Under the pieces are notes generated by a model that saw only the letters and a list, made by a program, of their open reading frames with translations, did no database searches and was not told the origin of the DNA. From assembly GCA_965215845.1 (NCBI GenBank), contig CBDCEL010000002.1, forward strand, positions 22,954 to 86,953: 64,000 nucleotides of DNA. The letters are read 5' to 3'. Position 1 is the first letter of the stretch, and every line of letters begins with the position of its first letter. Source of the stretch: Aurantibacter sp. (GTDB taxonomy: Bacteria > Bacteroidota > Bacteroidia > Flavobacteriales > Flavobacteriaceae). A program made the position numbers and the translations under genes. Positions 14,538-59,785 of this stretch are shown piece after piece.

Positions 14538-14597
14538 CCTTATTTGGAAACTTTTTAGGTATCCTTTATCTTAAAGGTGTTCTAGTAAGCACCGACC

Positions 14598-32614: not shown

Positions 32615-32619
32615 CGAAC

Positions 32620-40248: not shown

Positions 40249-41268
40249 ATGTACATCGCGATCACACCCCAGAAAATTGGACCGACCTATTCGAATAGCG
40301 TAGCGGATTATGTTGCCTATCTCGAAAAGGAAAACGAGGGACTTGAACCAGGTGACCAAGAGCATTTTTTTAACCAGACCGAGGATCGAATTGCTCCCGA
40401 TACCGTCATTTCAGAAATCGATGCCAATACGGCAAAGCTCAAAAAAACCGAACCCAAATTCTATTCCATAATGGTCAGCCCCAGCCAACGGGAACTTAAA
40501 AAAATCGCCGATAATCCAGAGGCCTTAAGAGCATATACCCGTGAACTGATGAAGGAATATGCAAAGTCTTTTTATCGCGATAAGCCCGTGACGGTAGACC
40601 AGATAAAATACTTTGCCAAATTGGAACATGAACGCACCTATCGTGGATTTGAAAAAGAGGTTCTGGAAAATGCTCCCTACCGAAAACGAATTGCCAAACT
40701 GGAAAACGATATCCGCAAAGTCAGTCGTGGGGAACTGGAGGGGAGCATCGAAAAACTGCAACTGGAAATCAAAAAACTTAGGGAAAATGCCCCACACAAA
40801 ATCAATGGACAAATAATCGTTGCGGGGATGAAAAAGGAGGGCGACCAATCCCATATCCATATCATCGTCAGCCGCAAGGACGTGACCAACACCTTTAGTC
40901 TTTCCCCCGGATCAAAGTACAGGGCCTCCGAAGTGGAGATGCGCGGCAAAAAGGTGCAACGCGGTTTTCATCGTGATCGGTTCTATGAAAAATCGGAACA
41001 GGTCTTTGACAAGCTCTTTGGCTACGACCGGAATTTTGCGGAAACCTACAAGGCCAAAAAGACCTTGGTCAAAGACCCCATCATGTTTCGGATGCTCTTG
41101 GGCAACCTACCATCTAGCGAGAAAGCCTTGGCATTAAAGCTGCTTTCAAAATCCGGCATGCGCATTCCCTCGATCCCGACCAATAAAGTACAGTTGGCCC
41201 TAAAGGTTTTCCATCGCTTGCGAAGGGGAATGAAAAAGGCCATGGAAGCAGGGTCGATAGGTATCTAA
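40249..41268 (+). CDS. Relaxase-like mobilization protein (Bacteroidetes MobB/BtgB type)
   Basis: N-terminal Tyr-containing region (SNSVADYVAYLEKEN) and a histidine motif GDQSHIHIIVSRKD. Lies between the MobA-like gene and the coupling protein. Confidence 0.65.
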   Translation: MYIAITPQKIGPTYSNSVADYVAYLEKENEGLEPGDQEHFFNQTEDRIAPDTVISEIDANTAKLKKTEPKFYSIMVSPSQRELKKIADNPEALRAYTRELMKEYAKSFYRDKPVTVDQIKYFAKLEHERTYRGFEKEVLENAPYRKRIAKLENDIRKVSRGELEGSIEKLQLEIKKLRENAPHKINGQIIVAGMKKEGDQSHIHIIVSRKDVTNTFSLSPGSKYRASEVEMRGKKVQRGFHRDRFYEKSEQVFDKLFGYDRNFAETYKAKKTLVKDPIMFRMLLGNLPSSEKALALKLLSKSGMRIPSIPTNKVQLALKVFHRLRRGMKKAMEAGSIGI

Positions 41269-41345: not shown

Positions 41346-42875
41346 TTGTCCGCTTGTTTAAAATCCGGTTTTTATATAAATATGTTCTGGATAGCCTTGG
41401 GTTTGGCCTGGGTAGGGTTTAAAACCGGAAATACCCAACAGTTTGTAATGATCTTATTGGTCGTTGGACTGCCATTGTTTTTTATAAACATCCTTTGGTT
41501 CGTCTACTTTCCAAAAGAAGGCGACAATGCGATTATAAAGCGTTACGCCGTTCACTTGAAAGTCTCCAAAGGCGAGGTGCTTCTGAAAAATATCCGTAGG
41601 GGCATTGCCGTTATCGGTGCTGCCGGAAGCGGTAAGACCGAAAGTGTCGTCCATCCATTGTTGAAGCATTTCAACCAATGGAACTTCAGCGGGGTCATTT
41701 ATGATTACAAGGACTTTGAGATTACCGAAATGGCCTACCCGCTCTTTAGCAAGGGCGATATTCCCTTCCAGATCATTTCGTTCGATACGGTTCATGCCAA
41801 GGTCAACCCCATAGCCCCAAGATACCTGCCCGATGAGGAGAGTGTCAATGAAGTCTCCCGTGTTCTCGTGGAAAACCTTTTGGAACAAAGGGACAATCAA
41901 ATGAATGCCACGACCCGGTTCTTTAATGATGTGGTCGAAGGATTGATCGGGGGGATGATATGGCGGTTGAAAACGGATTTCAAGGATGCCTGCACCTTGC
42001 CCCATTTGATAGCCCTGTATCAACAACTCGATACCAGGGGCTTGATCAAGTTTCTTTCCGCGAACACGACTTCTAAGGCCATGGCCGATGCCTTTATCAA
42101 CGGGGTAGGATCGGAGCGACAGACCGCCGGGGTCAAAAGTACCTTGGCCAATGCCTTTAAAAAGATAAGCACACAGCGCATCTTTATGGTACTGTCCGAA
42201 GATGAGATCGACCTGAACATTAACCATCCCGATAGTTTAAAGGTAGTCTCCGTGGTCAACAATCCAAGAATCGAGACTTCCTTGTCCCCGATAATCGCAA
42301 CGATCCTGCATACGATTACCAAACAGATGAGCGTGCGCCGCCGAAACCCTTCCTTTCTGTTGATGGAGGAGGCCGCGACTTTACGCTTGTTGAACATGCA
42401 CCGTATTCCAGCTACATTGCGGAGTTATGACATTGCTACGGTCTATGTGCTACAAGATAAAATTCAAAACGATATGATGTACGGACCTATGGCGAGCAAG
42501 GCAATTCTGGGCAATCTCTCCTATCAGTTTTTTGGGAAGGCCAATGACCCCGATACGGCCAAATACTACGAACGTTTTTTCGAGATCGTGAAGAAGGAGA
42601 CCAAAAGTGTGAACAAAGGGTATAATCTAAATTTCGACACGCGAGTGACGAAAGGGGAGCGGGAGGTGGCCAAGACCAGGGCCGATGTGTTTTATGGATT
42701 GCCACAAGGAAAATTTATGGTCTTGGCGGATGGAAGGGATAAGAAAGTACAGTTTAAAACTCCAAAAATCATTAGGCAATTGCCACCCTCGAAACGAAAT
42801 TCAAAGAAAGAACTTCAGGAGAATTTTGAGCGGATCCATCGGGAGGTAAAAGGGTTGTTGAAAAGCCAAACCTGA
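41346..42875 (+). CDS. Type IV secretion coupling protein (TraG/VirD4 family; CTnDOT MobC-like)
   Basis: N-terminal TM helices and Walker A GAAGSGKTES. A short ATG ORF at 41278 (MEQLNYIVVIWVLFLGSGFELGP...) in another frame may be the true N-terminus, split by one more frameshift. Confidence 0.8.
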   Translation: MSACLKSGFYINMFWIALGLAWVGFKTGNTQQFVMILLVVGLPLFFINILWFVYFPKEGDNAIIKRYAVHLKVSKGEVLLKNIRRGIAVIGAAGSGKTESVVHPLLKHFNQWNFSGVIYDYKDFEITEMAYPLFSKGDIPFQIISFDTVHAKVNPIAPRYLPDEESVNEVSRVLVENLLEQRDNQMNATTRFFNDVVEGLIGGMIWRLKTDFKDACTLPHLIALYQQLDTRGLIKFLSANTTSKAMADAFINGVGSERQTAGVKSTLANAFKKISTQRIFMVLSEDEIDLNINHPDSLKVVSVVNNPRIETSLSPIIATILHTITKQMSVRRRNPSFLLMEEAATLRLLNMHRIPATLRSYDIATVYVLQDKIQNDMMYGPMASKAILGNLSYQFFGKANDPDTAKYYERFFEIVKKETKSVNKGYNLNFDTRVTKGEREVAKTRADVFYGLPQGKFMVLADGRDKKVQFKTPKIIRQLPPSKRNSKKELQENFERIHREVKGLLKSQT

Positions 42876-42919
42876 CCAGCGAGTTTATCCATAGTTACAA
42901 AATTCAAGGCCCACAATGC

Positions 42920-44605
42920 CTAATCGACATATTCAAATTCATTGAGTTTTTCGTTCCATTTCAAATCATAAATATCCCATTTTTGGCCGGGACTTCGCTC
43001 TTCTTCCAGTTTTTGGGCAATGATTACATGCTCACCATTTGTCCTGACCGTAATCATACCATATTTAGCGACGTTGCTGTCCCGTAATTTTTCCATTTCC
43101 TCGATCTTGGCCTCAATGTCCTTTTTGACTGTCAAGGCTTTCAGTTCCTCTTCCAGCTTTTTCAACCTCTCGTAAAACTTGATCGGGTATGAAAACTCAA
43201 AAGTGCTTCTCGCAAGCTCGGTACTAAAGATCAAAGGCCTGATCCCCCTTCCCGATTTGCCGTAGGCACCAAGGGCATCCGGCCTGGGATGGGCATGTGA
43301 TTCCTTGTCCCCGCTGGAGATGATCGTGGCTATGGGATTAATGGCCCTTAGAAAGGAATCAAGGACATCGGCCGCGCCATGGTGACAGGCCTTGGCGATA
43401 TCCGACTGAAACTTTCCCCGTGTTTTGGAAATAATGACGTCGAGCAGTTTTTCCGATTCCTCGAGAAGTTGTTCGAGTTCTTTTCTTTTGTTACTGCTCA
43501 ACTGGCCCGAAAGCTTCACCTTGGTTTTACGAATGGTCTCTTCAAGAGAACTTAAAGTTGTCTCGATCTGGGAATAATGCTTTGCGAGGTAGTCCTGAGA
43601 TTTGGTGTTGAGATCGCCCCCTAGGAGCATTTTCAAGTTTTTATACCTGAGCATGAAAACGATGGAATGACCATTTTTGGTTTCCCCTTCACTGCCAAGT
43701 TTAACAAGACAGTCCCTGGTTTTTCCCTGAAAAGTAACTTTCTCGGTAATGGGCCCCAGGATTTCCAAACTTAGTTCATTTGGCGCCTTGAAATGGTCCA
43801 AATTGGTTTTGGAGATATCAAGAAATTGGAATTTTACGCTTTTGTTATTGGTCCGGGCCGCTCGAAGTGTTTTAATGTATAATTTATCATGCCTCGGATT
43901 TTTTGGCGGAGGGTTACTTTTTATTAAATCGTGCATTTCCTTATTGGTGAGCACCGTATCCCATAAGTGAAAGTGTTTCTTGCTATCGGCAGGCACTTTT
44001 CTGCCCAGATCATTGAACCAGGTTTTTTTATCGGCATCTTTGAACGGCCTTTCCACAATTCCATTGTGGCAGATATTCTTTATGCTAAGTTTTTTGTTGG
44101 AAAATATATTGTGGAAGCCATAATAATGGTCCAGGTCCGGATGTGAAATTACCGCGTAGTCGATTTCAAAAGGTTTTTTTACGTTATTCGTAGAGCTGGT
44201 CGCCCCATCGACCCCGGCCACGATTCTATTTCGAAGGTTGTATCTCCAATTGATAAAACGGGCCATATTGTCCGCACCTTTGCCATCAAACCCCACGCCG
44301 GCACCGGCATCTATCAAGATCACCTCGTCATCAGGTGTCACGATATGGCACCCATCGCCCTGCCCGATGTCGACAAAATTGACCTCGAGTATTCTCTTGT
44401 TGCTGAGCCATTCCTTTTTTAACCACCCGTTGTCGTTTCGTGAACGCACCTCGACCCAATCGCCTTGCTTTTTCCCGGTGCATTTCGCATAATCCCCGAG
44501 AATCAAATGGTTGATGGCATTTTTTGATGTGGTCATTTTTGGTGCTATCCTCAAGACGACATCCCGTTGGGTCACAAAACAAGGTAACTTTAAATTCAAG
44601 GCCAT
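42920..44605 (-). CDS. SH3-like domain + ComEC-type MBL-fold metallo-hydrolase with a coiled-coil insert (561 aa)
   Basis: GDWVEVRSRNDNGWLKKEWL (SH3-like). VNFVDIGQGDGCHIVTPDDEVILIDAG, VISHPDLDHYYG, LLGGDL and ACHHGAAD are ComEC/Rec2-type MBL motifs. Confidence 0.7.
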   Translation of the reverse strand: MALNLKLPCFVTQRDVVLRIAPKMTTSKNAINHLILGDYAKCTGKKQGDWVEVRSRNDNGWLKKEWLSNKRILEVNFVDIGQGDGCHIVTPDDEVILIDAGAGVGFDGKGADNMARFINWRYNLRNRIVAGVDGATSSTNNVKKPFEIDYAVISHPDLDHYYGFHNIFSNKKLSIKNICHNGIVERPFKDADKKTWFNDLGRKVPADSKKHFHLWDTVLTNKEMHDLIKSNPPPKNPRHDKLYIKTLRAARTNNKSVKFQFLDISKTNLDHFKAPNELSLEILGPITEKVTFQGKTRDCLVKLGSEGETKNGHSIVFMLRYKNLKMLLGGDLNTKSQDYLAKHYSQIETTLSSLEETIRKTKVKLSGQLSSNKRKELEQLLEESEKLLDVIISKTRGKFQSDIAKACHHGAADVLDSFLRAINPIATIISSGDKESHAHPRPDALGAYGKSGRGIRPLIFSTELARSTFEFSYPIKFYERLKKLEEELKALTVKKDIEAKIEEMEKLRDSNVAKYGMITVRTNGEHVIIAQKLEEERSPGQKWDIYDLKWNEKLNEFEYVD

Positions 44606-44886
44606 TTTTGAAATTTTTACTGGATATTAATTAATCATGTTTACATGCCGATCCATAGCGGGGATAGATCCGGTTTTATTAAAGGGGATGGTGGTAATAC
44701 TTGGAGTATTAAAAGATATACCTTTTTTAAAAACACACGTTACACGGAAACCTTAAAAAAACTAAGGTTTTCATATTGCCAACTACCGGATATGACAAAG
44801 AAGCTCCACAAACTTTTAACTGTGGTACTGAACATGTAACACACAAGAATAACAACGTGTAAGTACCCCTTAATTAGCTACAGTTT

Positions 44887-45321
44887 TTATTCTTCTAGTT
44901 CTAATATATTTTTTGATAAAATAGAAAATGCGTGAACGATTTTTGTCCTATGCGTAAATCTGGTGTACTTCTCTCCTTTCAGATATTCTAATATATCAGC
45001 AGACCATAATTCCAATTCTCCATTCTTAATATTAAAATGAAAATCGTGTGCAAGATTATTTCTTAGTTTATTTACTTTTTTGAGAGAGGAAACGATGAAT
45101 TTTTGTTTTTCAATCTCCTTAAATCTTATACTCTCAAACGCTTTAATTTTTCTATAAAATGAATGATCTTCGGAATTCTTTACTTCGCATCTGTTTAACG
45201 ATGTCTCTAAAACAGTTTCAAGTAACAAATGTCCTTTAAGTAATATTAGTTCTAGATCAGTTTTTGAATCTAAATGTCCCCATACTGCCCATTCAAATAA
45301 AAAATCAATTTTCTCTCCCAA
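44887..45321 (-). CDS. Small HEPN-motif protein (144 aa, DUF4145-like)
   Basis: Rx4H motif in VNKLRNNLAHDF; predicted all-helical; 18 nt after the preceding gene. Confidence 0.6.
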   Translation of the reverse strand: MGEKIDFLFEWAVWGHLDSKTDLELILLKGHLLLETVLETSLNRCEVKNSEDHSFYRKIKAFESIRFKEIEKQKFIVSSLKKVNKLRNNLAHDFHFNIKNGELELWSADILEYLKGEKYTRFTHRTKIVHAFSILSKNILELEE

Positions 45322-45339
45322 TTCTTTTACGGCAACTGT

Positions 45340-46032
45340 TTAATTACATTTTTTTATAAAATCGTGTCTAAATTTCATCCACTCAAAAGCCGCTTTTTTG
45401 AAAGTTCTTGAGTATAGCTCTTTGGAAATTACTTGTTCCAAATACAATTCAATTGTAGTTGTGAATTCGCGAACATATTTGGTCAAGTTAATATAATCAG
45501 CTTCCTCATTACTTCTTACAATTAGTATCCTATTTGCTTTTTTGTCTAATGATGATTGTGCAACTTTATAATAATGGAAATTATTGTTTTTATCAATGTA
45601 GCTTGTTGTATGCGAAGCTATTTTATTTCTCAATTCAATCGCATCCGTTTTTTTAAGTTGTTCCCGAATTCTCTTTTGATTTTGAAAGTTAAATAATCGG
45701 ACTAAATCTGTGATTACGCCAACCTGCAAATAACAAGCATTTAAAACGCCATATAGTCTTAAATACATTTCTCCTTGTCTATTTTCACTAACATGCAAGC
45801 CGTTTTCCAAAAATTCATTAATAGCATATTGAGCATCTTCCATTTGGTCGATACAAGCTCGGAATAAATCATGATCATAAAGATTTTGAAATCTCAACTT
45901 TTTTGTCAATTGTTTTATTTGTTCCTCCTCTGTTGGATAGGTTTTGACGTTTGTATACCTTAAAATTCCGAGTAGGATTTCGCAGTAAATTTCAACTTTT
46001 GATATTTGGCTTAAATATTCCTCGTCTGTCAT
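45340..46032 (-). CDS. HEPN-motif protein (230 aa)
   Basis: Rx5H motif in AIELRNKIASHT, preceded by a helical LYGVLNACYLQVGVITDLVRL segment; 29 nt after the preceding gene. Confidence 0.55.
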   Translation of the reverse strand: MTDEEYLSQISKVEIYCEILLGILRYTNVKTYPTEEEQIKQLTKKLRFQNLYDHDLFRACIDQMEDAQYAINEFLENGLHVSENRQGEMYLRLYGVLNACYLQVGVITDLVRLFNFQNQKRIREQLKKTDAIELRNKIASHTTSYIDKNNNFHYYKVAQSSLDKKANRILIVRSNEEADYINLTKYVREFTTTIELYLEQVISKELYSRTFKKAAFEWMKFRHDFIKKCN

Positions 46033-46061
46033 TGGTCGTTCGTCAAATTGTAACTGACTTG

Positions 46062-46949
46062 TTATTTTATAAATTTATTTACAGTCATTGGTAAAAAGAT
46101 TTCTCTTTCATTTTCTTCTAACTTTTGGCCGATTTTACAGTCGATTGTTACAAAGAAGTTTCTGTCACCGAATCTTGCTACTAGTCTTTTGTCATTTCGC
46201 CTTAGACTTAACATCTCAAATGCGTTAGCAGGAATTATACCCTTAAGTTGTTTAAATACATTTTCATCAAAGTCAAAAGTCACTACATATGTTTCTTCAT
46301 TCACAATCAAACCTCCTGAAATAGAAAACTGATCAGGATCTAATTGTGTTATTTCCGTTATTGGAATATCTGGAAATATTAAGTTTTTAAAGCTTTCAAA
46401 ACCCAGCCTTTTAAGATGCAATCCTAAATCTTTTGCGAGCTTATTATAGTCTACCGTAAACACTTTATTAGGAGCTAGTAAGTCTTTAAGCGGGTCCCAA
46501 AATCTAGGGATACTAATTAATGGAAAATGAAGCAAAGGTTCGGGTTTTTGTATATCATATAGTACAAACTCTTTTCCGTTGCAAAGTGCAAAAAAATTCA
46601 CTCTCACCTCACTATGAATTGCGTATGAGTATGCTTGCTCAACGTGTTTAGATTTAATAATTTCTTCATTTGGTGATTTTGCGTCAAGAATCCAGGCAGC
46701 TTTTCCATTCACTTCAAACAAATAGTCTGGTATTATATATATGCTTTTACGTTTCGAGCCTATCGAAACAAAAGGGTGAATTAACTTTCTACCCCTTATT
46801 ATTTGATTAGGCTTGTCTGCCGAATATCCAAGTCCGCGTATTATTGGGATTATGATTTCCTCTCTGACAGAGTCTTCCTGAAATTCAGGATTTTCGAGAT
46901 TATCAAAATTAAATCCTTCGAGGATATTGAATAGTTTTTCTGATGCCAT
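46062..46949 (-). CDS. HsdR_N-type PD-(D/E)xK nuclease-fold protein with an unknown C-terminal half (295 aa)
   Basis: EEIIIPIIRGLGY...IPDYLFEVNGKAAWILDAKSP...HVEQAYSYA carries the PD...(D/E)xK signature of the type I restriction R-subunit N-terminal domain family. Confidence 0.65.
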   Translation of the reverse strand: MASEKLFNILEGFNFDNLENPEFQEDSVREEIIIPIIRGLGYSADKPNQIIRGRKLIHPFVSIGSKRKSIYIIPDYLFEVNGKAAWILDAKSPNEEIIKSKHVEQAYSYAIHSEVRVNFFALCNGKEFVLYDIQKPEPLLHFPLISIPRFWDPLKDLLAPNKVFTVDYNKLAKDLGLHLKRLGFESFKNLIFPDIPITEITQLDPDQFSISGGLIVNEETYVVTFDFDENVFKQLKGIIPANAFEMLSLRRNDKRLVARFGDRNFFVTIDCKIGQKLEENEREIFLPMTVNKFIK

Positions 46950-47059
46950 GCAATTCCATTTGTCTTTTCAAGGTTAAGGCGAATGTAAGATTACATCTAT
47001 AAGTATATTAAATATGCAGTCAATCATTTAATTGAGCTTTAGTTTGACTCTTTTTTTTG

Positions 47060-47962
47060 TTACCGCCATATATCTTCATATATCTGAGTGTATTCATCCA
47101 ACTCAATTACTTCAAATCCTACTGAATTCAAAAAGAATTTTTGTCCATCTGAATTCCTTGGTGAACTTTTCTTAATAAACCAACCATTGTGTTTTCTATT
47201 TGGAAACCTTCTGAAATATTTCGCTCTTTCAATCAATAGCCATCTAAGAAAAACCTCTGTTTCGTTCAAACCTAAGCCCACTATTACAAGAGATTTATTG
47301 AATATAATATGTAACCAAGTTTTATATCCTGGCCAAGCTTCTTGGTTTTTCCCTTCAAAATTTATGTTCTCTGGCTTCTTGTGAATAAGTCTTCTTGCTC
47401 TTTCCACATTGCCCATATATTGTGAAAGACCAAGTTTAATACTTCTGTGATATCTTGCCATTCCATTTATATACCAAACTCCGAATCCTGCGGTAGGATA
47501 ATTTAAAGTATAATTTGAATAATAATTTGACCATGGATAAAAATCGGTGAAATTTGTTCCCTCCATCCTATTGAACTCTAAATTCATTGATTTAGGAATC
47601 AATTTATCAAAATTTGTTGTTAGAATTTGCGAGTTCATTTCATGTATTCGTTCTAAAATCAGATTTTGCTTCAGGTTTGCCTCCCATTCTTTCATCCTTC
47701 GTTGCACATCCTTTTGCAGTAAAGAGCTAAATTTTTTATCTGATGCATTTTGTATTTCTAAAGCATCGTAAAACTCAGTAAAAGATATTCCATGCGGAAT
47801 TGTACTTTGGGTATTAAATGAATGGGTCTGCCATAAATCCAATAATAAGTCATTCCATGATACTCCATCATTCTCGTAATATAGATTTATTCCATTTCCA
47901 AGAATGAACGCAAGATCGTGATGATTTCTATTAAATATTCTTATTACCTGTTCGACACTCAT
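47060..47962 (-). CDS. SIR2-like (SIR2_2-type) protein, stand-alone (300 aa)
   Basis: AFILGNGINLY...SWNDLL (GAGxS..W..LL analogue), ILTTNFDKLI (TTNYD box), and LVIVGLGLNETEVFLRWLL (GYS..D analogue). Confidence 0.65.
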   Translation of the reverse strand: MSVEQVIRIFNRNHHDLAFILGNGINLYYENDGVSWNDLLLDLWQTHSFNTQSTIPHGISFTEFYDALEIQNASDKKFSSLLQKDVQRRMKEWEANLKQNLILERIHEMNSQILTTNFDKLIPKSMNLEFNRMEGTNFTDFYPWSNYYSNYTLNYPTAGFGVWYINGMARYHRSIKLGLSQYMGNVERARRLIHKKPENINFEGKNQEAWPGYKTWLHIIFNKSLVIVGLGLNETEVFLRWLLIERAKYFRRFPNRKHNGWFIKKSSPRNSDGQKFFLNSVGFEVIELDEYTQIYEDIWR

Positions 47963-48036
47963 TTTTAATTTGTTCAGTCCTTTGTTTGAACTTTGCCAAA
48001 GGTGAAAGATGTACAGAGTAACGATGTAGGAGTGAT

Positions 48037-50571
48037 TCAGTCATCATCTATTGTTACTTGTAGTATTTTATTTCTTGTTTTTTCAATATCCATTATAATT
48101 ATTTCAGAAAGATTTAGCTGTTCAAAATTTGTTTCCAATATCCATTTTTTGCAATCGGCTTTTGACATTTTGGTTGAAGGGGTATACTCTGAAATGGTAA
48201 TAACAGAATTTCTGCTCAATCCTAATGATAATAGAGAGAGTTGAGATTCTTGGGAAACCCCAAATTCTAACCATAGATTTAAATCTGGTATTCCATCTAA
48301 CAAATCATTCCGGTTTATCTCTTTTAAATAAAATCTTAGTATATCAATATAGCAGCTCGATTCTTTGGCGAACCTGAATCTCGCAAAATTCTCTACCATT
48401 TCCATAATATTTCTGCATACACTATCTACTTTATAATATGCGCCTTTGGATTTATAATTGTTAATAGAACTAGTAATTATATAAGATAGTGGTTTACCTG
48501 ACATCCAATGGATCAGCACTATCGCCCGTGTAGGATTCATTTGAGGGAAAAAAGATGCCAATGTTTTACCGATTCTACCTATAAATTTCACATATTCGTC
48601 ATATGCATTTTCGTCTTCTGGATAGGCAGGAATTAAACTTTCAATCTCCGTTTTTTTCTCTTCAAAATAGTCTAGTAGTTCTTGCTGTGCAATTGGAGAA
48701 ATTCCTGGGTTTTTTAATATGATTTCATCAGGAATTTTAATTATTGGTTTTAATTCCTTAAAAAGACTTTTAAGGCTTATATGAAATTGGGTTTGCCCCA
48801 ACTTATTTTCTAAGAAACGAGAATAGTAATAACTAAATGCAAATTCATATTCTTGATTTCCTTCCGCTTCACTTCTTGGACTACCCTCTTGAATATATCT
48901 AATAAAGTCATCACTTTTGTTTTCTTCAAGTTCATTAAGTGCTTTAACAATTTTTTGTTTTTTCTTATCTGGACTTGGAGGAAAACCCCATTCTTTAGGT
49001 TGTATACAAACTATATTTCCACTAAACTCTTTTCCCCAACGCCCAGCTCTTCCTGCTAAGTTCCAAAAATCATTTTCATTTAATGGTTTATTCTTGCCGC
49101 GCGTTGGTTTTCTAATAAAAACTGCTGTGGCTGGAAGATTAACTCCTTCTAGAAGGGTCGATGTACATATTAGGTATTTTATTTTGTTTAACTTGAATAA
49201 TCTTTCGATTTCTTGTCGTATTAGCAAGGGCATATTTCCATAGTGAAATGCTATTTTCCGATTTAAAACTTTACCAAGTATATAATCATTATGAATTGTG
49301 TTTTTAACAAGTTTAATCAGCTCCTTTAATTCTTTGCACGGATTATCATCTTCGGAAAGTTCATAAACTATGTTCGCATATTTTTCGGACTCAGCTGCAC
49401 CATTGGCATAAATTAAGTTTCCAAATTTGTTTCTGGAGATGGCTTTTGATATAAGCGCTAACTTTCTAGATTCTGGTGTAGGTCTATCCGAAAGTTCAAC
49501 TATTCCAACTTCAATTGGTTTTTGCTTTGTAATTAGATTGATATACCATTTTGTGGGCTTTCTTCTTACTTGAGTTACGTATAACAAATTTTGATTGACT
49601 GCTACAAATTCTGTATTAATAGCCTTGTTTTTTTTTCCAAGGGATAAATTTTCAAATAGCACCTCAGGGTTTGACGTAAAAGGACTTGAAAAGTATACTT
49701 TCACATCTGGATTTAAATCAATTACATCTTCGATTTTTCTTTGTAGAAGAATACCTCTATTATTATTGTCAATCTTATGTGCTTCATCTATAAGAAGGAA
49801 ATCAATTCTCCTGTCCGTACTTTGCATTAAATACCAGTGCAATCTTTCTTGAGTAAATACAAAAAGGTTGGACTGATCTGAAATCTCATTTTGTAACGGA
49901 ACTGTAGTCAGGTTAATATCTGAAATTTCGTTCTGTATCATTAATTCCGTCAAATCTTCTTCAACTTGACTTATGAGCGCCCTTGTAGGTACTATATATA
50001 CGATGTTCTTATTTCGACTTTTTAGTTCTTCAATTAATAACTGATAAAGGATAAATGATTTACCTGCCGAAGTTGGAGCGGAAATACTAATTGCAGAATT
50101 GGCTCTTGACGCATCATATACCTCTTTTTGAAACCGATTTAATGAAACGATTGAATCATTTATGATAATAGAATTTCTTACCCTAGTTTGATTATTCATT
50201 AGTTTGAAAGGAAGAGGTAAATTTGAAGCATAGTCTTCACTAAGCAAATTCCTTTTAATGGCAAGTCTAATTGAAATTTGATTTGTCAAGGTTTCAAGAA
50301 TTATTGCTGCTCCAGATTTTTGTGTGTCAGTAGTGTTGCAAATCAAACATGTTTGAGCAATCCTAAGAGAAGCATCAAGGTGTGTGCTATTAGATGATTG
50401 GCATAAAACACTTCCAATACTTAATACATTATTCCAATTTATTTCTTTTAATAAATCGTCTCTGTTGATATCCCAAATCAGATTTGGAATTGTATCACCA
50501 ACTGAGATCTTGAGTATTGCTTCATATTGTTTTTGAAAGCTATTCAGATTATATAATTTGTCAAAAATCAT
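48037..50571 (-). CDS. SF2 DEAH-box helicase (HamB-like, 844 aa)
   Basis: Motif I APTSAGKSF, motif II LLIDEAHKI, motif VI NLAGRAGRWG. Its ATG overlaps the upstream stop (ATGA). Confidence 0.85.
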   Translation of the reverse strand: MIFDKLYNLNSFQKQYEAILKISVGDTIPNLIWDINRDDLLKEINWNNVLSIGSVLCQSSNSTHLDASLRIAQTCLICNTTDTQKSGAAIILETLTNQISIRLAIKRNLLSEDYASNLPLPFKLMNNQTRVRNSIIINDSIVSLNRFQKEVYDASRANSAISISAPTSAGKSFILYQLLIEELKSRNKNIVYIVPTRALISQVEEDLTELMIQNEISDINLTTVPLQNEISDQSNLFVFTQERLHWYLMQSTDRRIDFLLIDEAHKIDNNNRGILLQRKIEDVIDLNPDVKVYFSSPFTSNPEVLFENLSLGKKNKAINTEFVAVNQNLLYVTQVRRKPTKWYINLITKQKPIEVGIVELSDRPTPESRKLALISKAISRNKFGNLIYANGAAESEKYANIVYELSEDDNPCKELKELIKLVKNTIHNDYILGKVLNRKIAFHYGNMPLLIRQEIERLFKLNKIKYLICTSTLLEGVNLPATAVFIRKPTRGKNKPLNENDFWNLAGRAGRWGKEFSGNIVCIQPKEWGFPPSPDKKKQKIVKALNELEENKSDDFIRYIQEGSPRSEAEGNQEYEFAFSYYYSRFLENKLGQTQFHISLKSLFKELKPIIKIPDEIILKNPGISPIAQQELLDYFEEKKTEIESLIPAYPEDENAYDEYVKFIGRIGKTLASFFPQMNPTRAIVLIHWMSGKPLSYIITSSINNYKSKGAYYKVDSVCRNIMEMVENFARFRFAKESSCYIDILRFYLKEINRNDLLDGIPDLNLWLEFGVSQESQLSLLSLGLSRNSVITISEYTPSTKMSKADCKKWILETNFEQLNLSEIIIMDIEKTRNKILQVTIDDD

Positions 50572-51530
50572 TTCCCCAGCATCTTTAAGAAATGATCTCT
50601 AAATTCTTGCACAGATGGAAATGGAATAATGAATACGTGAATTTCGAATTTTTCCAAGCTAACATGTGATTTAATGTGCTTACCGGTGGTTTTTAACCAA
50701 TTTGCAATTTTATCCCGAAATGATGTTGCTAGGTCTGATGTCACCTTTTCTAATGGTTGACTTGGATATTCGTCATCGTCAAACCCTACGAAACAAACAC
50801 CTTTGTAATTTAGCTTGTTGGAAAGGTCATCATCTAGGTCGAAATATCTAACTAATATTTTTTCCAAATCCGGATTGTTCGTGTTGTCGAGTAGATTCGT
50901 TGAGATTAGATGTAGGTCTCTTGTTTGTGTACTGTCATGTCCTTTAGCATCTAAAAGGAATCCTTGAAGACTTTCGAAACAATGTTTTAATGCATTATTT
51001 GCAGTTTGCTCCATTTTAGATTCCCCCCAGTAAAGGGATAAGCTATCATCTTCCTCTTCATATTTTACATGAATTCCATCTGCACCTTGGTAATGTAGTT
51101 TTCCAGATGTTTTCAGAGTCATTTTGCTAATAAGCTGGGGCAACTTTAGTATTTCTTGTACCAGTATATAAAGTAGCATTTCTCCAAATTCACCTGTCTT
51201 CTCTAGGTCAACAAAAAGCTCCTTTGCTCTTCTTTCAAGTTCTAATATTTTACTTGACGAACCTGTTCTTTCCAAGAATCCTCTGGCTTCGTCTTGATGC
51301 TTTTTGGGTAATGAATAATCAACTATTTTTGTAAGAACAAATTCAATAAGGTCTTTTGTCCTGGGCTTTCCATCAGCATCTAATTTTAAACAATAACAAT
51401 AGCCTTTTGCCTCAGTATCCTCAATTTCAAGTTCTACTTCTATTTTCTCAAGTCGGGAAAATATTTGACCTTCACCATCAACGAGAAGGAGCTTAATTGC
51501 GTCATGTATCCATTTACTTCTATCTTTCAA
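50568..51530 (-). CDS. DUF1837-like protein (HamA-like, 320 aa)
   Basis: KTGEFGEMLLYILV...KTSGKLHYQGADGIHVKY...LYWGESKM gives a D...ExK nuclease-like core resembling DUF1837. Translationally coupled to the helicase. Confidence 0.6.
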   Translation of the reverse strand: MKDRSKWIHDAIKLLLVDGEGQIFSRLEKIEVELEIEDTEAKGYCYCLKLDADGKPRTKDLIEFVLTKIVDYSLPKKHQDEARGFLERTGSSSKILELERRAKELFVDLEKTGEFGEMLLYILVQEILKLPQLISKMTLKTSGKLHYQGADGIHVKYEEEDDSLSLYWGESKMEQTANNALKHCFESLQGFLLDAKGHDSTQTRDLHLISTNLLDNTNNPDLEKILVRYFDLDDDLSNKLNYKGVCFVGFDDDEYPSQPLEKVTSDLATSFRDKIANWLKTTGKHIKSHVSLEKFEIHVFIIPFPSVQEFRDHFLKMLGK

Positions 51531-51614
51531 TCTTTTTATTTTACAAATAGCTTTTATATAGATGAAAAATGCATTTATTTACTAAGATAAAAAGGATAAA
51601 ATAGATGTGTCCGT

Positions 51615-52222
51615 TCATCTTTTATCGGGTCTCAACTTTCCTGAAAGCCCATTATACCTCAAATATTTGTAGTAGGTTGCTCTTGAAATATCCAACCGCC
51701 CACAAATCTCAGAAACCGGCAATTTACCCTCTTTAAAGTAATCCTTACAAGATACGGCTATCTGTTGATTTTTCTTACTAATACCTTTTAGAGCTCCTAA
51801 AACTTGTCCACGACGGCGTACAGATTCTAAGCCCGCCTTGGTCGGTTCAATAATGATGTCCCGTTCCAATTGGGCCAGAGCAGCGAAAATGTTGATGATA
51901 AACTCCGATTGAGAGGATTTTTTGGTGGTATCAATAAAAGACTCTATAATACTTCTAAATTTTACACCTTTTTCATCAAGTTCAGACATTAACTTGGTAA
52001 AATGAATTAGGCTTCTAACCAGCCTGTCCAATTTCCAAACTACTATGGTATCACCCTCCCAGAAATAATCTAAAAGTTTACTCAGATTTTTTCGCTCTTC
52101 TTTGGTGCTCGAAACCTTGTCCGTATAAATGTTGTTTTCTTTGATTCCTTCTTTTAGAAGGCATCAATTTGAAGATCTAAATTCTGTTCGTTGGTACTTA
52201 CTCGCGCATATCCAAATATCAT
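51615..52222 (-). CDS. Serine recombinase (resolvase/invertase family); apparent frameshift near 52150-52165
   Basis: Hand-translated N-terminus MIFGYARVSTNEQNLDLQIDA (catalytic Ser motif). The next frame continues LKEGIKENNIYTDKVSSTKEERKNLSKLLDYFWEGDTIVVWKLDRLVRSL into the 138-aa track ORF, which ends in an HTH (ISRATYYKYL). Confidence 0.8.
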
Positions 52223-52568
52223 GACCTTAAAGTTTAATTAAAGGTCAAAATAGAAACGAATTAATTAGTACGGGAAAATGAACTTTGCGAAATTAGTGAA
52301 CTCGAGAAATGTCAATAGTTCACAAAAACGGTAGATTTGGTAAACCCATTTAATTTTATAAAAGACGCCTTTAAGGGGTTATGAAAAACGACGGACAGAG
52401 GAACTGTGATTTAAAGAACCAAACTTCCATTAGATAGCATCGCAACCAGCAATGCTATCGGGGTTGAATATTGGTCAAGAATTGTTTTATGGCATCAATA
52501 TAAAAGATATGTGACTATCGTTATTAAAAAGATTGGTTTTTGTTACTTTTAGTAAACTATATTTGTCT

Positions 52569-52592
52569 AAATGTAAAAAATATTTTACATTT
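52569..52592. promoter_or_regulatory. Palindrome AAATGTAAAA-AATA-TTTTACATTT, a candidate operator
   Basis: Perfect 10-bp arms, 36 nt upstream of the 52628 start of the membrane-protein/XRE operon. Confidence 0.5.
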
Positions 52593-52627
52593 GATTTATT
52601 CTAACTACTAACGTAAAGATTACGGTC

Positions 52628-53101
52628 ATGCGCACAAATTATTTATTGCCCAATAAATACAAGATCATTGGATGGATAATGTTTATTTCCGGAATTGTTT
52701 CTGGAATTACGGTATATTTCATTCCATTCAAAACTGAACCTCTTAAAATGAAAGTTTTGTCAATTCTCAATGACTTCGCGGCAGGCCCAAATGAAATGGA
52801 GTACTTCAAAATTATTGAAAGTGGTATTGCCTTTGAATTAATCCTTCTTGCCATCATTTTTGGAGGATTGATTGTTTGTTTTTCTAAAGAAAAAGTAGAA
52901 GATGAGTTTATTTATAAACTCAGAAATGACTCTTTGGTCTGGGCAATAATTTTTAACTATAGCGTGCTGATCGTACTAATTCTATTTATCCACAATTTTA
53001 CTTTTATGCATGTTTTGGTCCTCAATATCTTCACTCCATTGATATTCTTCATCGTCCGTTTTAATTTTTTGAAAATGAAATACGAAAGTCATGAAGAATA
53101 A
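52628..53101 (+). CDS. Small multi-pass membrane protein (DUF2975-like context)
   Basis: Four hydrophobic helices. Overlaps the downstream XRE gene by 11 nt. Confidence 0.6.
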   Translation: MRTNYLLPNKYKIIGWIMFISGIVSGITVYFIPFKTEPLKMKVLSILNDFAAGPNEMEYFKIIESGIAFELILLAIIFGGLIVCFSKEKVEDEFIYKLRNDSLVWAIIFNYSVLIVLILFIHNFTFMHVLVLNIFTPLIFFIVRFNFLKMKYESHEE

Positions 53102-53291
53102 TATAAAAGTACAGCGGGCAATTCATGATATGACACAGGCGGATTTGGCGAAAAAAATTGGAGTTAGTAGGCAAACTATAAATGCCATGGAAAAAAATAA
53201 ATATGTGCCATCTACAGTGTTGTCGCTAAAAATTGCAAGACTCTTTAAAAAGCCCGTTGAAGATATTTTCTTTTTGGATGATCAGGATTGA
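53091..53291 (+). CDS. XRE-family HTH transcriptional regulator (YozG-like, 66 aa)
   Basis: MTQADLAKKIGVSRQTINAMEKNKYVPS is a classic Cro/C1 HTH. Confidence 0.88.
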   Translation: MKNNIKVQRAIHDMTQADLAKKIGVSRQTINAMEKNKYVPSTVLSLKIARLFKKPVEDIFFLDDQD

Positions 53292-53525
53292 TAAAAACTT
53301 GCTATCTATTGGAACATATATCAAAACTCCATCATATTCCAACACTTTCCATTTGTTTTGGATGCTTTAATTTGGATGACCTCGAGTGGTGATTTCTAGA
53401 GAAGCTCTTTTTACATAGATTGTACACGTGAATATGCGGCCAATACAAACAATAATATTTGAGCTTTAATTGTTTAATAGGTAGGATGCCTGTCAATTGA
53501 TATATCCAATTTATAACCGTACACT

Positions 53526-55019
53526 ATGTCAAAGATGAAAGCACGGAACATCTTAACGATATTAATATTGTTGGGGCTTACGGCTTGTTCCAAAAAGGAA
53601 TATGGAATAATAATAAATGGTAAGATAGCCGGAAATAACCCTGAAAAAATAGAGTATACAACACCAATTAACGGAAACTGGTTTTATGGTCATAAAGAGT
53701 TTACATCGACGGACTCCCTAGGGATATTCCAAATTAAAATGAACATTGAAGAACCGTCGTTCGCAACCATTTATATTCCCGGAAAAGCCAGTTGTGTGCT
53801 GTTGCTGGAACCTGGCAAAACATATGACATCGACCTGGAAACCGACCAAAACAAGTTTGTTGTCCACTCCCCGGACAGTATTGCACAAAACTTCTATAAT
53901 ACTTTGCCCGCTCCCGATTTTAATCTTTTCGGTTTAATGGAGTTTAGCAACGATTCAATACCCTCGCTAATATCTTCCAAAATAGCCGAACTTAAAGAAA
54001 GGGAGGTTTCGATGTTCGACGAATTACTGCAAAAGAATGATATTTCAAAAGACTTTTATGAACTGGCAATCTTGGACAGAAAGGTTTACTATTCTGCTCT
54101 TGAGGCCGGTGCGGCAACACTGCTCTTAAATAGGTTTCTGGATAAAAAGCATATAGGAAAAGTTAAAGAATTAAGAACCTTTTGGGACGAAAACATTGGA
54201 ATATCCAAAACGACCCAACAGGGTTACGATCGTTCTCCTTGGTTTTATGCTTTCGTAAATAATGCAATATGGTATCACCGTTACTCTTCAAGGAAACCTG
54301 ATTCGGAAGATATGCCATTGATGGAAGATTTTGTTGAAAAGTTGCATTATAACATTGATGCGCCGAAAAAATATCTTGAGGGGAAGGAACTTGAATATTA
54401 TTTGGCTTCCTATATTTTCTTCGAAATATGGTCATCCAAAGACAATTCAAAAGAATTGATCGAACTCTATGAAGATTTCAAAAGTGAATACCCAAATGGT
54501 CTTTACAATGGATATCTAACTTCTGCCATAAGACCGATTATCGATTATCACGAAAAACTGGAAACTGCCCCTACAAATGAAAAGGTACGACTGGTGAAAG
54601 GCCAAGAAAATATCGATACTTTCGATGAGCTGATAAAACTGTTTCATGGGAAGAAGGTTTTTATTGATATATGGGGAACGTGGTGCGCTCCATGCAAAAG
54701 AGAGTTCGAGCACAAAGATGCGTTGGACAAACTTTTAGAATCGAGGGATATTGCAAAACTCTATATTTGTGAAGGACGGAGCAGCAAGAAAAAGGCGTGG
54801 AAAGAAATGATAAGATTCTACGATTTAGAAGGTTATCATCTAATGACAAACGAAAAACTTAATAGAGATATAATTGACAGATTTGGCAATAACGGACGAT
54901 TTGCCTACCCCAGATATCTTTTACTTGACGAAAATGGAAAAGTCGTTAATCCTGAAACAAGTTATCCATCAAATATCGCGCAACTAGAAAAGGAAATAAA
55001 TGAAAGTTATCAATGGTAA
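53526..55019 (+). CDS. Lipoprotein with a C-terminal TlpA/thioredoxin-like domain
   Basis: Lipobox LLGLTAC. CxxC active site in FIDIWGTWCAPCKREF. Confidence 0.8.
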   Translation: MSKMKARNILTILILLGLTACSKKEYGIIINGKIAGNNPEKIEYTTPINGNWFYGHKEFTSTDSLGIFQIKMNIEEPSFATIYIPGKASCVLLLEPGKTYDIDLETDQNKFVVHSPDSIAQNFYNTLPAPDFNLFGLMEFSNDSIPSLISSKIAELKEREVSMFDELLQKNDISKDFYELAILDRKVYYSALEAGAATLLLNRFLDKKHIGKVKELRTFWDENIGISKTTQQGYDRSPWFYAFVNNAIWYHRYSSRKPDSEDMPLMEDFVEKLHYNIDAPKKYLEGKELEYYLASYIFFEIWSSKDNSKELIELYEDFKSEYPNGLYNGYLTSAIRPIIDYHEKLETAPTNEKVRLVKGQENIDTFDELIKLFHGKKVFIDIWGTWCAPCKREFEHKDALDKLLESRDIAKLYICEGRSSKKKAWKEMIRFYDLEGYHLMTNEKLNRDIIDRFGNNGRFAYPRYLLLDENGKVVNPETSYPSNIAQLEKEINESYQW

Positions 55020-55177
55020 AAGTCGTAATAATTGATAGCCCATTGACCATTGATGATTGTGATGTTGAAGGTTACAGAAACCCATTCTCTCACTTGATTT
55101 AATAGGCATAATTAACCCCACGTTAAATTATTCTTTTAGTAACAAATGGGAATTATGTTAGGTAATGCAGAATTAAT

Positions 55178-56365
55178 TTATTGCGCAATGATTGGTCCTT
55201 TAAGAGTTGGATATTTTAATGTGGCCCTTAATAAATGGTAGCCTTCTTCTCCGGGTCCTTTGCCATATTTTGTGGTTATTTGCACGTATCCTATGATCGT
55301 ACCGTCATCCTTTTTACAAATATCAACAAACTTGACGCCCAAATTTTCTCCTGAGGAAATGTTTTTGTTTACCGCAATTATTTTATTGTTCAGAACATAA
55401 TCATTTGATTTATAAAGTAAAAGATGGTCATTATCTGAATCTGAATCTTCCGATGCATTCTTGTCTAATGCTGTTACGACATTTCTAATTTTCAATTCTT
55501 CAATATTTAATACAAGGTGATCTAAATAATTGTTGTTCGGATTATATTCAAATGCAATTTTGAATCGAGAGGTTAATGGCGGAGCTGCCCATGGTCTCCA
55601 TTCAAGTGTTTGTGTCTCATCAAAAACGAAATCTTCAATTATATCAAACCTGTTTGAGTCATCTTGAATACCAAACAAATAAAAGGTGTCTTGATTTCGT
55701 TCTTTATCCCTCCACCAAATTAATTCACAGGGATGTATTTCAGGACGCCAATCATGTCCGCTATCCAAGACCCATGGACCATAGACACAAATATCTCGAC
55801 CTTCTAAGGGTGAATCGGGAGTATGTTTTTCCATCATTCTTGTCCTGGGATTCCATCGATTCTCTTGTTTGGGAAACCAAAAGTTATTATATAGATGCTC
55901 GTCCGGTGTGATTTCTGCCTGGAAACAATCTTCATAAGTGCCACTGGTTTCGCATCTCTTCCATTCAGTGGTGTCAATAGCCCGACTTTTGGGATCTTCA
56001 ATAATATATTTAAAATCTGTGTTTGGAACTATATTAAGGTTCCAATCATATTCATCTCCTATGGGATTATGAACAATATAATTATGAAGTTTCCCATTTA
56101 CAGCCATTTTCAAACCATTTACTGGTGACCACTTGTCTGGCCAAGCAATGTCGTTATCTTTGGCAACAATATATTGAATTCCCTCATTTTCCGGATCATA
56201 CCCATGTACCCCTTCTGTTTTCCTTTTCGTAAACTCAAAAAAAGCTATTTGTTCAGAAGTACAGGTTGGTATTTCAGAATCTTTAATTATTGTGTTTTTA
56301 GGCGTTGAGCATGATAAACATAAAATTATCAACCAAAAACCTATATTGCAGACACAGTTTTTCAT
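55178..56365 (-). CDS. Hypothetical Trp/Cys-rich lipoprotein (395 aa)
   Basis: Signal/lipobox WLIILCLSCS. No motif recognised. Confidence 0.5.
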   Translation of the reverse strand: MKNCVCNIGFWLIILCLSCSTPKNTIIKDSEIPTCTSEQIAFFEFTKRKTEGVHGYDPENEGIQYIVAKDNDIAWPDKWSPVNGLKMAVNGKLHNYIVHNPIGDEYDWNLNIVPNTDFKYIIEDPKSRAIDTTEWKRCETSGTYEDCFQAEITPDEHLYNNFWFPKQENRWNPRTRMMEKHTPDSPLEGRDICVYGPWVLDSGHDWRPEIHPCELIWWRDKERNQDTFYLFGIQDDSNRFDIIEDFVFDETQTLEWRPWAAPPLTSRFKIAFEYNPNNNYLDHLVLNIEELKIRNVVTALDKNASEDSDSDNDHLLLYKSNDYVLNNKIIAVNKNISSGENLGVKFVDICKKDDGTIIGYVQITTKYGKGPGEEGYHLLRATLKYPTLKGPIIAQ

Positions 56366-56542
56366 AATTATTATTGATTAAAATGTATTTTTTATAGCGA
56401 CTTCAAATATTCTCAGAACTTGATGATTTGTTGTTTTTAAGATAGTCAAATAATTTTTTGTAAACACCGTTTTGCTAAAAGGATTCCCAGGTTTTATTAA
56501 ACTTTATTTGCCGACGGTTACTTAGTCAGATAGATCTAAAGA

Positions 56543-57138: not shown

Positions 57139-57283
57139 AACAATGGATTTTTTCCGAAAATATGGAAAAAATCCAAATACGATATATCGGAACCTGGATT
57201 TTTTGACTTTAACACTTTTAGTTGTATAACAGGTTTGGATTAATCCTGTTAAAATGGGTTTCTGTTGGAAATGATGGACTTTA

Positions 57284-59738: not shown

Positions 59739-59785
59739 CTTTTTCTTTTTTAGTAAAAAGGGTCTATGACCCTTGCCCGCGGGTG

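Follow-up and report, generated by a model that had tools for sequence, protein, structure and literature searches.

The stretch of DNA considered here, referred to below as the window, comprises 64 kb from a genome of Aurantibacter sp. (positions are counted from its first letter), and its layout is that of chromosomal DNA followed by an integrative and conjugative element (ICE) of the Bacteroidota type. Within this ICE, a six-gene array sits between the gene for the type IV coupling protein (T4CP) and traN. The six minus-strand genes that the initial annotation placed between 44887 and 51530 are all present, and the minus-strand run is longer than these six, as the recombinase pseudogene on one side and a metallo-beta-lactamase (MBL)-fold gene on the other (42920-44605) are co-oriented with them, putting all eight genes from 52222 to 42920 on one strand. 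The array had been read as a discrete cassette of cooperating effectors nested within the ICE. It is probably the AT-richest part of a mosaic defence island that occupies a 14.4-kb cargo hotspot of the ICE, with modules that are independent of one another and a recombinase that has decayed. The array and the sequences next to it contain the following features.

44806-44825, minus strand: terminator-like hairpin downstream of the last array gene, in a hairpin-rich 281-nt spacer

44887-45321, minus strand: p144, a small single-domain HEPN-like protein and predicted RNase, with a TTG start

45340-46032, minus strand: p230, a putative HEPN protein with an invariant R135-N-x4-H141

46062-46949, minus strand: nuc295, a stand-alone PD-(D/E)xK nuclease, HsdR-N or type IV-restriction-like

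47060-47962, minus strand: stand-alone SIR2_2-like protein of 300 aa, a candidate NADase

48037-50571, minus strand: HamB, the Hachiman sensor helicase (PADLOC HamB1, 1e-272; Pfam DEAD, ResIII and Helicase_C)

50568-51530, minus strand: HamA (DUF1837), the Hachiman effector nuclease (Pfam HamA, 6e-53; PADLOC HamA1, 3e-106)

51615-52222, minus strand: pseudogene of a small serine recombinase of the Gin invertase/resolvase type

52229-52286: conserved stretch upstream of the recombinase with a decayed palindrome, a candidate binding site; homology with locus L087 ends at 52286

52287-52627: AT-rich spacer free of open reading frames (ORFs), with hairpin palindromes at 52433-52459 and 52569-52592

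Three further features define the setting of the array in the ICE.

41346-42875, plus strand: T4CP (TraG-like; Pfam TrwB_AAD_bind, TraG-D_C and T4SS-DNA_transf), the left flank of the hotspot

42876-57283: the whole variable cargo hotspot of 14.4 kb, i.e. the T4CP-traN interval

57284-58114, minus strand: traN (Pfam DUF4138), the right flank of the hotspot

Related elements were collected by scanning one genome per species with the T4CP protein. Among the 507 relatives confirmed, 80 loci of Flavobacteriaceae were obtained with 10 kb of sequence on either side. All 80 have the relaxase and T4CP genes, and in 49 of them traN lies within 10 kb of the T4CP gene. The ten cargo genes tested (MBL561, p144, p230, nuc295, the SIR2-like gene, HamA, mem157, Trx497, p395 and p120) are found in none of the 80, while HamB has one distant match (28% identity, in L015) and the recombinase one ortholog (in L087). 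Nucleotide homology to the closest ICEs (L011-L015, L017 and L019, with a T4CP that is 82-85% identical) stops at 42839-42870 and restarts at 57279-57309. Because the cargo genes are absent from the relatives and homology breaks at the flanking genes, the varying unit is the entire T4CP-traN interval. The 44.6-52.6 kb block does not come and go as a separate unit, since it is missing from the 80 related ICEs together with its neighbors on both sides.

The content of this slot differs from one relative to the next. Its length is 0.6-9.4 kb in the 49 loci that have traN within 10 kb, and it exceeds 9 kb in 22 more. The slot of L015 (Maribacter sp., T4CP 83% identical) carries a Hachiman system of a different subtype at 11102-14886 of that locus, in the opposite orientation and with a HamA of 341 aa and a HamB of 918 aa; as the subtypes differ, the same type of defence would have been acquired independently at this slot. 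In L087, the recombinase ortholog is followed by a type I restriction-modification system. The slot of L014 holds a small gene pair, read as toxin-antitoxin-like from its size and sequence, and that of L013 an AAA ATPase (by its GxxGxGKS motif alone) and a large protein. Defence or defence-like cargo was thus seen in some of the few hotspots inspected (L015, L087 and L014). Judged from these comparisons, the T4CP-traN interval is a fixed position with content that differs among related elements, and thus has the character of an ICE cargo hotspot.

The AT-richness described initially is real. A recount bore out both spot values exactly (45341-45400, 26.7% GC; 7021-7080, 48.3%). The six-gene block has a GC content of 32.6% compared with about 44.6% for the ICE backbone, and essentially no other 8-kb stretch of the window is lower (in sliding windows, the minimum is 0.325 and the median 0.423). 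A discontinuity had been proposed at both borders, however, and only the left one, at about 44573, is present. In a two-breakpoint likelihood segmentation of 37.8-64 kb, the low-GC segment extends over 44573-56648 (GC 0.333, compared with 0.448 outside), so that on the right low GC runs to about 56648 with no step at 52.6 kb. GC content is 0.29-0.34 over 52.3-53.5 kb, 0.357 over 52628-57283 and 0.446-0.453 in the backbone. At third codon positions (GC3), the six genes are uniform at 0.22-0.28, other cargo ranges over 0.29-0.46, and the recombinase stands at 0.40. Across the ICE family, slot GC is below that of the adjacent backbone in 44 of 47 loci (mean difference 0.044, up to about 0.13-0.14), and AT-richness is therefore a property of the slot rather than the signature of a cassette. 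The borders given by composition and homology lie at 42.9/44.6 and 56.6/57.3 kb and not at 52.6 kb, which argues against a nested cassette. What holds of the proposed acquisition within the ICE cargo region is that the block is foreign AT-rich cargo, mostly defence or defence-like; a discrete cassette moved by the recombinase is not supported.

Homology also divides the array, although not into the three two-gene blocks first described. Homology blocks occur at 44874-46033 (with L097 and L098), 46054-46976 (L009 and L010), 47058-47971 (L105) and 51658-52286 (L087), and their limits fall no more than about 30 nt from the module concerned, or about 65 nt upstream in the case of the recombinase, giving a division of 2+1+1+2. 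Because these blocks are gene-sized and the genes have different neighbors elsewhere, the array reads as a mosaic of at least four independently circulating modules. The idea that the six genes cooperate is not supported by these contexts: elsewhere, the genes for the SIR2-like protein and the nuclease, as well as both small genes, are accompanied by entirely different neighbors, and Hachiman is a self-sufficient two-gene system (PMC12278908). Obligate cooperation of all six genes is unlikely.

The recombinase was initially described as a resolvase/invertase-type enzyme immediately upstream of the array. The gene is there, and of that type, but it is frameshifted and not intact. Its frame opens MIFGYARVSTNEQNLDLQIDAF (MIFGYARVST...) and then meets TAA, a stop at codon 23, with the rest of the gene in another frame. 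Alignment to the intact 205-aa ortholog from L087 (73% identity) shows that one nucleotide of a short run of T has been lost near 52160. The remaining 138-aa ORF lacks the catalytic serine and consists of positions 72-144 of the Resolvase profile plus a helix-turn-helix (HTH) region, while the ortholog (11654-12271 of L087) has an N-terminal catalytic domain (YARVS) and a C-terminal HTH. The frameshifted allele is reproduced without difference in an independent Logan contig of metagenome run X1. The same metagenomes also contain an allele of about 88% identity in which an extra base at 52160 restores the frame, and at least three alleles of the 5' part of the gene coexist in the metagenomes (runs X1 and X3). 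Because the independent X1 contig shows the frameshift and the frame-restoring allele is a separate one, the frameshift is probably real, despite a depth of only 2-3x.

In the PDB, the intact ortholog is matched best by Gin (E 2e-36) and by resolvases of the gamma-delta/Tn3 kind (gamma-delta, E 6e-28). Enzymes of the Gin/resolvase class invert or resolve between two sites in cis, and do not insert cassettes. A large serine recombinase of the integrative cassette type (more than about 400 aa, with a zinc-ribbon) was considered and rejected, given the 205-aa length of the ortholog and its nearest relatives. Like the Gin/Hin invertases and the gamma-delta/Tn3 resolvases, the intact form has a size of about 205 aa and a catalytic domain with an HTH, and in L087 a palindrome lies immediately upstream, a 17-nt inverted repeat with a 24-nt spacer that ends 5 nt before the ATG. 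The window gene differs from these systems in its frameshift and in its degenerate copy of the site. Pattern searches of the window that allowed three mismatches found no second cognate site beyond chance, so no invertible or resolvable segment can be defined; an invertible segment at 42.9-52.3 kb, an idea that came from the orientation opposite to that in L087, was rejected for want of a partner site. The recombinase is best described as a decayed remnant, predicted to be unable to act now. In the past, it may have had a role in cargo exchange or multimer resolution.

The region upstream of the recombinase had been described as about 400 nt of ORF-free, repeat-containing DNA. The first part of this description holds, as the 405 nt of 52223-52627 contain no ORF that reaches 60 aa, but in place of direct or tandem repeats there are just three short palindromes (52217-52252, 52433-52459 and 52569-52592). 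Likewise, the target-site duplication or terminal repeats that a cassette might have at its ends were not found: a search for flanking repeats and target-site duplications around 44.6/52.6 kb returned only short chance-level pairs, none of which brackets the block. What is conserved here is the recombinase gene with about 65-75 nt of upstream sequence, a unit that has differing flanks in at least four contexts (the window, L087 and two other metagenome contigs). Positions 52206-52273 are common to several contigs, and in runs X1 and X3 the 5' end of the gene and its upstream sequence recur in identical or nearly identical form, with flanks that diverge at about 52287-52298.

In the model that builds on the initial annotation, 44.6-52.6 kb would be a mobile unit complete in itself, imported by the serine recombinase next to it or still movable by that enzyme, and its six genes a single co-transcribed and cooperating system. 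This is very unlikely. The enzyme is frameshifted and its palindrome decayed, and its small Gin/resolvase class acts by inversion or resolution in cis rather than by insertion. There is no second site, target-site duplication or terminal repeat and no GC step at 52.6 kb; every non-Hachiman gene occurs elsewhere without the others, and none of the 80 related ICEs has the block. On the other hand, the cassette model would account for the intact recombinase ortholog at the head of another defence cargo (type I restriction-modification) in the same hotspot of L087, for the conserved recombinase 5' end and upstream sequence with their diverging flanks, and for several properties of the array itself that weigh against a mosaic of independent modules.

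These properties are the uniformly low GC3, the single orientation and the short spacers among the six genes (84, -4, 74, 110, 29 and 18 nt, from the recombinase gene leftward), with which joint transfer of several modules and read-through transcription of the array are possible. Terminator-like hairpins also occur solely after p144, although the number of such sites is no higher than the shuffled expectation, which makes this weak evidence. To the same side of the balance belong the extent of the comparison, with neighborhoods sampled for only 3-8 relatives per family and covering the non-Hachiman genes (close relatives of the window Hachiman were not retrieved); the activities of the SIR2-like protein, p230 and p144, which are predicted from sequence across whole families; and the assembly, in which the path over 52206-52298 passes a repeat node, so that the array is joined to the right-hand cargo on the strength of the deposited sequence. 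Scans for sigma-70 promoters and terminators gave numbers at or below the shuffled expectation, and the exact Bacteroidetes TAnnTTTG motif does not occur in the minus-strand spacers. A search for RNA runs that contain the sequence found none. Because Bacteroidetes -7-like motifs with one mismatch are present in the 74-nt and 110-nt spacers, internal promoters there are possible.

A second explanation retains the joint arrival of the genes without their cooperation. The 42.9-52.3 kb region would have arrived in one step by exchange between ICEs, site-specific or homologous, at the recombinase/res-like site and the T4CP gene, with the recombinase decaying afterwards and the genes functionally independent. 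It agrees with the conservation of the recombinase unit in different contexts and the end of homology at about 52286-52298, with the L087 arrangement in which this unit abuts the T4CP gene, with the single strand of the eight genes from 52222 to 42920, and with the presence in the community of at least three recombinase alleles, including a frame-restoring one. It is nevertheless unlikely. The backbone-like GC content of the MBL gene sets it apart from the array and speaks against a single origin for both. Relative to the T4CP gene, the orientation is the reverse of the one in L087. Only one of the 80 relatives has the recombinase, and homology blocks of gene size, shared with different partners, suggest that the region was put together piece by piece.

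A chimeric assembly must also be considered, affecting either the island as a whole or the junction at about 52.2-52.3 kb, in which case the array and the right-hand cargo with traN would not be contiguous in any genome. Metagenome depth is just 2-3x, the path crosses a 68-nt node common to several contigs (depth 5.6, compared with 2) whose flanks branch, and 32.6-37.1 kb and parts of 53.6-57.2 kb are not represented in run X1. However, one independent X1 contig spans 41361-51027, from the T4CP gene to HamA, with no mismatch, exact-match X1 contigs tile 51024-53224, and one X3 contig covers 54075-59000. Moreover, the backbone genes on either side are those expected for the ICE, and 49 related loci have them in the same order and orientation. 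A chimera is thus extremely unlikely.

The reading favored here remains that of an island assembled gene by gene, from Hachiman, a lone SIR2_2-like gene, a lone HsdR-N/PD-(D/E)xK nuclease gene and the p230 and p144 pair, in a slot that related ICEs fill with ever-different, mostly AT-rich and often defence cargo. The common orientation, tight spacing and low GC content would reflect accretion in the hotspot from a low-GC Flavobacteriia gene pool, not a functional unit, and each module would act on its own, with a phenotype independent of the others. The functional labels first proposed for the six genes hold to different degrees: Hachiman is firm, the nuclease is barely over its Pfam cut-off, the SIR2 match is below its cut-off, p144 is HepS-like at the profile level only, and p230 has a motif only.

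The HamA/HamB pair is firmly assigned to Hachiman on sequence grounds. The PADLOC HamA1 match spans residues 8-319 of 320 and the HamB1 match is full length. The end of hamA overlaps the start of hamB by 4 nt on the same strand (50568-50571). On inspection, HamB has a Walker A AGKS and a DEAH at residue 262, and HamA contains GADG149...GESK169-172. In characterized systems, HamB is a sensor helicase that holds the HamA nuclease in check until DNA damage is detected (PMC12278908; PMC11914072). By analogy, HamB would survey DNA and on damage free HamA to degrade DNA, leading to abortive infection. The layout is that of type I Hachiman (PMC12278908; PMC11914072), in which hamA, with its DUF1837 domain, immediately precedes hamB, the gene for a DEAH-box helicase, and overlaps it. 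However, the pair is only distantly related to the structurally studied complexes (HamB compared with PDB 8vx9, E 6e-14; no match for HamA in a PDB sequence search), and it lacks the trypsin-MBL or PezAT accessory reported for some subtypes. An exact-sequence look-up of HamB returned no record, and no HamB relatives were found in viral contigs.

The SIR2-like protein scores 22.4 bits against Pfam SIR2_2 (PF13289), below the cut-off of 24.5 (E 1.5e-4), but 24 of 30 relatives match this model (best 1e-7). Among 30 family members, a GNG and a TTNFD motif are conserved, N117 of the latter is invariant, and H172 is present in at least 90%. There are at least 957 homologs in several phyla. PDB searches with the sequence and the family profile found no relative, and PADLOC gave no significant match (best PDC-S25, E 0.007, over 43 residues). 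Elsewhere, SIR2-like genes occur alone in a Saprospiraceae genome, beside Gabija in a Flavobacteriaceae metagenome-assembled genome (L002), beside an AAA/peptidase pair in Melioribacter and, in the closest relative (80% identity), before a gene for a 1040-aa SIR2 protein. Neither the nuclease nor Hachiman is alongside in any of the five contexts examined.

SIR2 domains are found in several defence systems, including Thoeris, DSR1/DSR2, SIR2-HerA and short Argonautes. With Thoeris ThsA, DSR1/DSR2, SIR2-HerA and the SIR2-associated short Argonautes, the window protein shares a putative SIR2_2-type domain, the conserved Asn (TTNFD) and the conserved His, as well as occurrence in defence-island neighborhoods such as that of Gabija in L002. 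It differs in being a single-domain protein of 300 aa without a sensor domain or a conserved partner gene; a TIR ThsB, HerA, an Argonaute or a long DSR C-terminal region is present neither in the window nor in the five other contexts. Once activated, this candidate NADase would deplete NAD+.

The nuclease nuc295 narrowly exceeds the Pfam HSDR_N cut-off (25.8 bits compared with 25.1), and it also matches the N-terminus of a type IIG restriction endonuclease in PADLOC (9e-9), with a putative catalytic motif PDY74...DAK89-91. Its 1220 homologs bear names such as 'type I restriction enzyme HsdR N-terminal domain-containing' or 'putative type IV restriction endonuclease', and it may act in a type IV-restriction-like manner. 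An 87% identical homolog follows a NERD/UvrD helicase in a mobilisable defence island, and a 70% identical one follows an OLD-type ATPase on a plasmid-like contig. A PDB search, by sequence only, gave nothing meaningful. The SIR2-like and nuclease genes were considered as a conserved pair; this was rejected, as the other gene is missing in 5 of 5 SIR2-like and 3 of 3 nuclease contexts.

Homologs of p230 (85 in all) were found, among the hits, only in Flavobacteriia-type genomes, and two are named 'HEPN AbiU2-like' by UniRef. R135 and H141 are invariant (R-x5-H). The AlphaFold2 model has a mean predicted local distance difference test score (pLDDT) of 92, but no match at E <= 0.001 was found with it by Foldseek in the PDB and BFVD, and a Pfam scan of 45 family members found no HEPN family; the HEPN label of p230 can therefore only be inferred, as can its function. 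Comparison of the p230 and p144 families by hhalign gave a 17% probability confined to the motif. Elsewhere, p230 homologs follow genes for FRG/PDC-S15 (87% identity, three loci), DUF4062, a Card1-like nuclease or proteins of no known kind.

The p144 family comprises 118 clusters at 50% identity, in which R87, N88 and H92 are invariant (RNxxAH). Its profile matches the HEPN core of HepS (PDB 9oij) with an E of 6e-5 and, weakly, Csm6 HEPN domains (0.016-0.19), and a few relatives match Pfam HEPN families, also weakly. A fold predicted without an alignment was unusable (pLDDT 37). HepS is a single-protein HEPN abortive-infection tRNase of the Gifsy-1 prophage (PMC13043305). Like it, p144 is small and single-domain with an N-x2-R-N-x2-A-H HEPN motif, although the aligned stretch is limited to about 80 residues and p144 has 144 aa compared with 212 aa for HepS. 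It shares with HepS its occurrence in defence-island contexts, but differs in that it usually sits just downstream of another gene (p230, AbiH or unknowns). p144 is accordingly classed as HEPN-like, resembling HepS at the profile level, with a predicted RNase activity, and it may serve as an abortive-infection RNase.

The two small genes are adjacent only in the window and in the two closest metagenomic relatives, other p144 relatives following AbiH or unknown genes. Homologs of p230 or p144 lie 24-60 nt downstream of genes for FRG/PDC-S15, a Card1-like nuclease or AbiH (L006:9093-10693, L008:9092-10693, L095:4534-6714 and L101:484-2293), but other copies have gaps of 160-240 nt, so that tight coupling is not universal. 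A more far-reaching proposal is that p230 and p144 form a new, Flavobacteriia-specific class of Rx4-6H abortive-infection nucleases, add-on effectors or regulators downstream of diverse defence or Abi genes (HsdR-N nuclease, FRG/PDC-S15, Card1-like nuclease and AbiH), with a p230 fold absent from the PDB and BFVD, and that, separately, the Gin-like recombinase and its palindromic site drive the swapping of T4CP-traN cargo. This is speculative, and rather doubtful.

Hotspot 5 of the SXT/R391 ICEs is an example of a cargo hotspot that holds a defence island. As there, the window has a fixed slot between backbone genes whose content differs among related elements, and AT-rich, co-oriented cargo made up of unrelated defence modules; it differs in that the slot belongs to a Bacteroidota-type ICE of Flavobacteriaceae and lies between the coupling-protein gene and traN. 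The same likeness applies to islands on chromosomally integrated mobile elements in general, the defence systems of which have been surveyed (PMC10201445). No description of the T4CP-traN hotspot was found in the literature, which was searched lightly. The island is thus an ordinary, well-populated one in a standard cargo slot of a Flavobacteriaceae ICE, and the initial observation of it was mostly right, while the cassette and cooperation ascribed to it are mostly unsupported. Its acquisition history, as far as it can be reconstructed, would document piecemeal accretion of defence genes in an ICE hotspot in place of a nested cassette with cooperating effectors. The slot is common to at least 80 marine Flavobacteriaceae ICEs and could serve as a source of new defence genes. 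The families of the 300-aa SIR2_2-like protein, the 295-aa HsdR-N nuclease and p230 are three candidates for single-gene defence; they recur in defence islands and are absent from curated defence models. The 144-aa HEPN family, distantly related to HepS, may be a minimal version of an abortive-infection tRNase.

The remaining annotated features of the ICE and of the hotspot are given below.

32230-32615: tRNA-Ser and tRNA-Pro, confirmed by ARAGORN and Rfam

40249-41268: DUF5712 relaxase

42920-44605, minus strand: MBL561, a 561-aa MBL-fold protein (Pfam Lactamase_B)

52628-56905: rest of the low-GC cargo, with genes not found in related ICEs

from 52628, plus strand: 157-aa multi-pass membrane protein with a faint YLATT match (E 0.02)

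53091-53291, plus strand: 66-aa Cro/C1 HTH protein, overlapping the end of the 157-aa membrane-protein gene

53526-55019, plus strand: TlpA/redoxin-like lipoprotein

within 52628-56905, minus strand: proteins of 395 aa and 120 aa with no assigned family

In MBL561, an SH3-like N-terminus is combined with an MBL fold and a tail that forms a coiled coil, and its GC content of 0.446 and GC3 of 0.53 are backbone-like, although it is cargo by its distribution. Weak matches to PADLOC LmuA (Lamassu) and PDC-M48B and to NCBIfam 6A-MBL and ComEC suggest that it may be a further defence effector. A link with Hachiman, in the manner of the trypsin-MBL modules, was rejected, as there is no trypsin gene and four genes lie in between. 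Contigs from runs X1 and X3 also contain a joint of 42598, in the 3' end of the T4CP gene, with 44771, in the spacer after p144, on opposite strands and with a shorter side of only 32 nt; the window shows no inverted repeat that would match it.

On the other side of the array, the genes for the 157-aa membrane protein and the 66-aa HTH protein make up a small two-gene unit in the low-GC cargo (52628-53291). Just upstream of it, at 52560-52594, is a 35-nt AT-rich palindromic stretch, AAATGTAAAA...TTTTACATTT. In runs X1 and X3, a sequence that matches it reaches a depth of about 100-150x, with unrelated flanks; the match is probably to an abundant unrelated genome.

The host of the ICE is a marine Flavobacteriaceae genome, with integration beside the tRNA-Ser and tRNA-Pro genes. 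The tyrosine integrase is present as two overlapping frames, 32848-33735 with the Arm-binding and SAM-like domains and 33590-34081 with the catalytic Phage_integrase part; this split may mean that the ICE is immobilised, or it may reflect indel errors of a low-depth assembly. The integrase and a split LanB-type dehydratase are followed by genes for SSB, RadC and a BfmA-like mobilisation protein, and rightward of the hotspot the minus strand carries traN, traM and a VirB4/TraG ATPase. An Rfam scan of 32-64 kb found nothing beyond the two tRNAs. ARAGORN reported an 85-nt tRNA-Lys at 59718-59802 on the plus strand, between two minus-strand tra genes, which the Rfam tRNA model did not confirm and which is probably a false positive. 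Homology to related ICEs begins no earlier than about 37.82 kb, and a second variable, AT-rich region lies at 34757-37627. Inside it is the LanB-type lantibiotic dehydratase, with its N-terminal domain in two ORFs (34757-35611 and 35538-36776) followed by a gene for the C-terminal domain.

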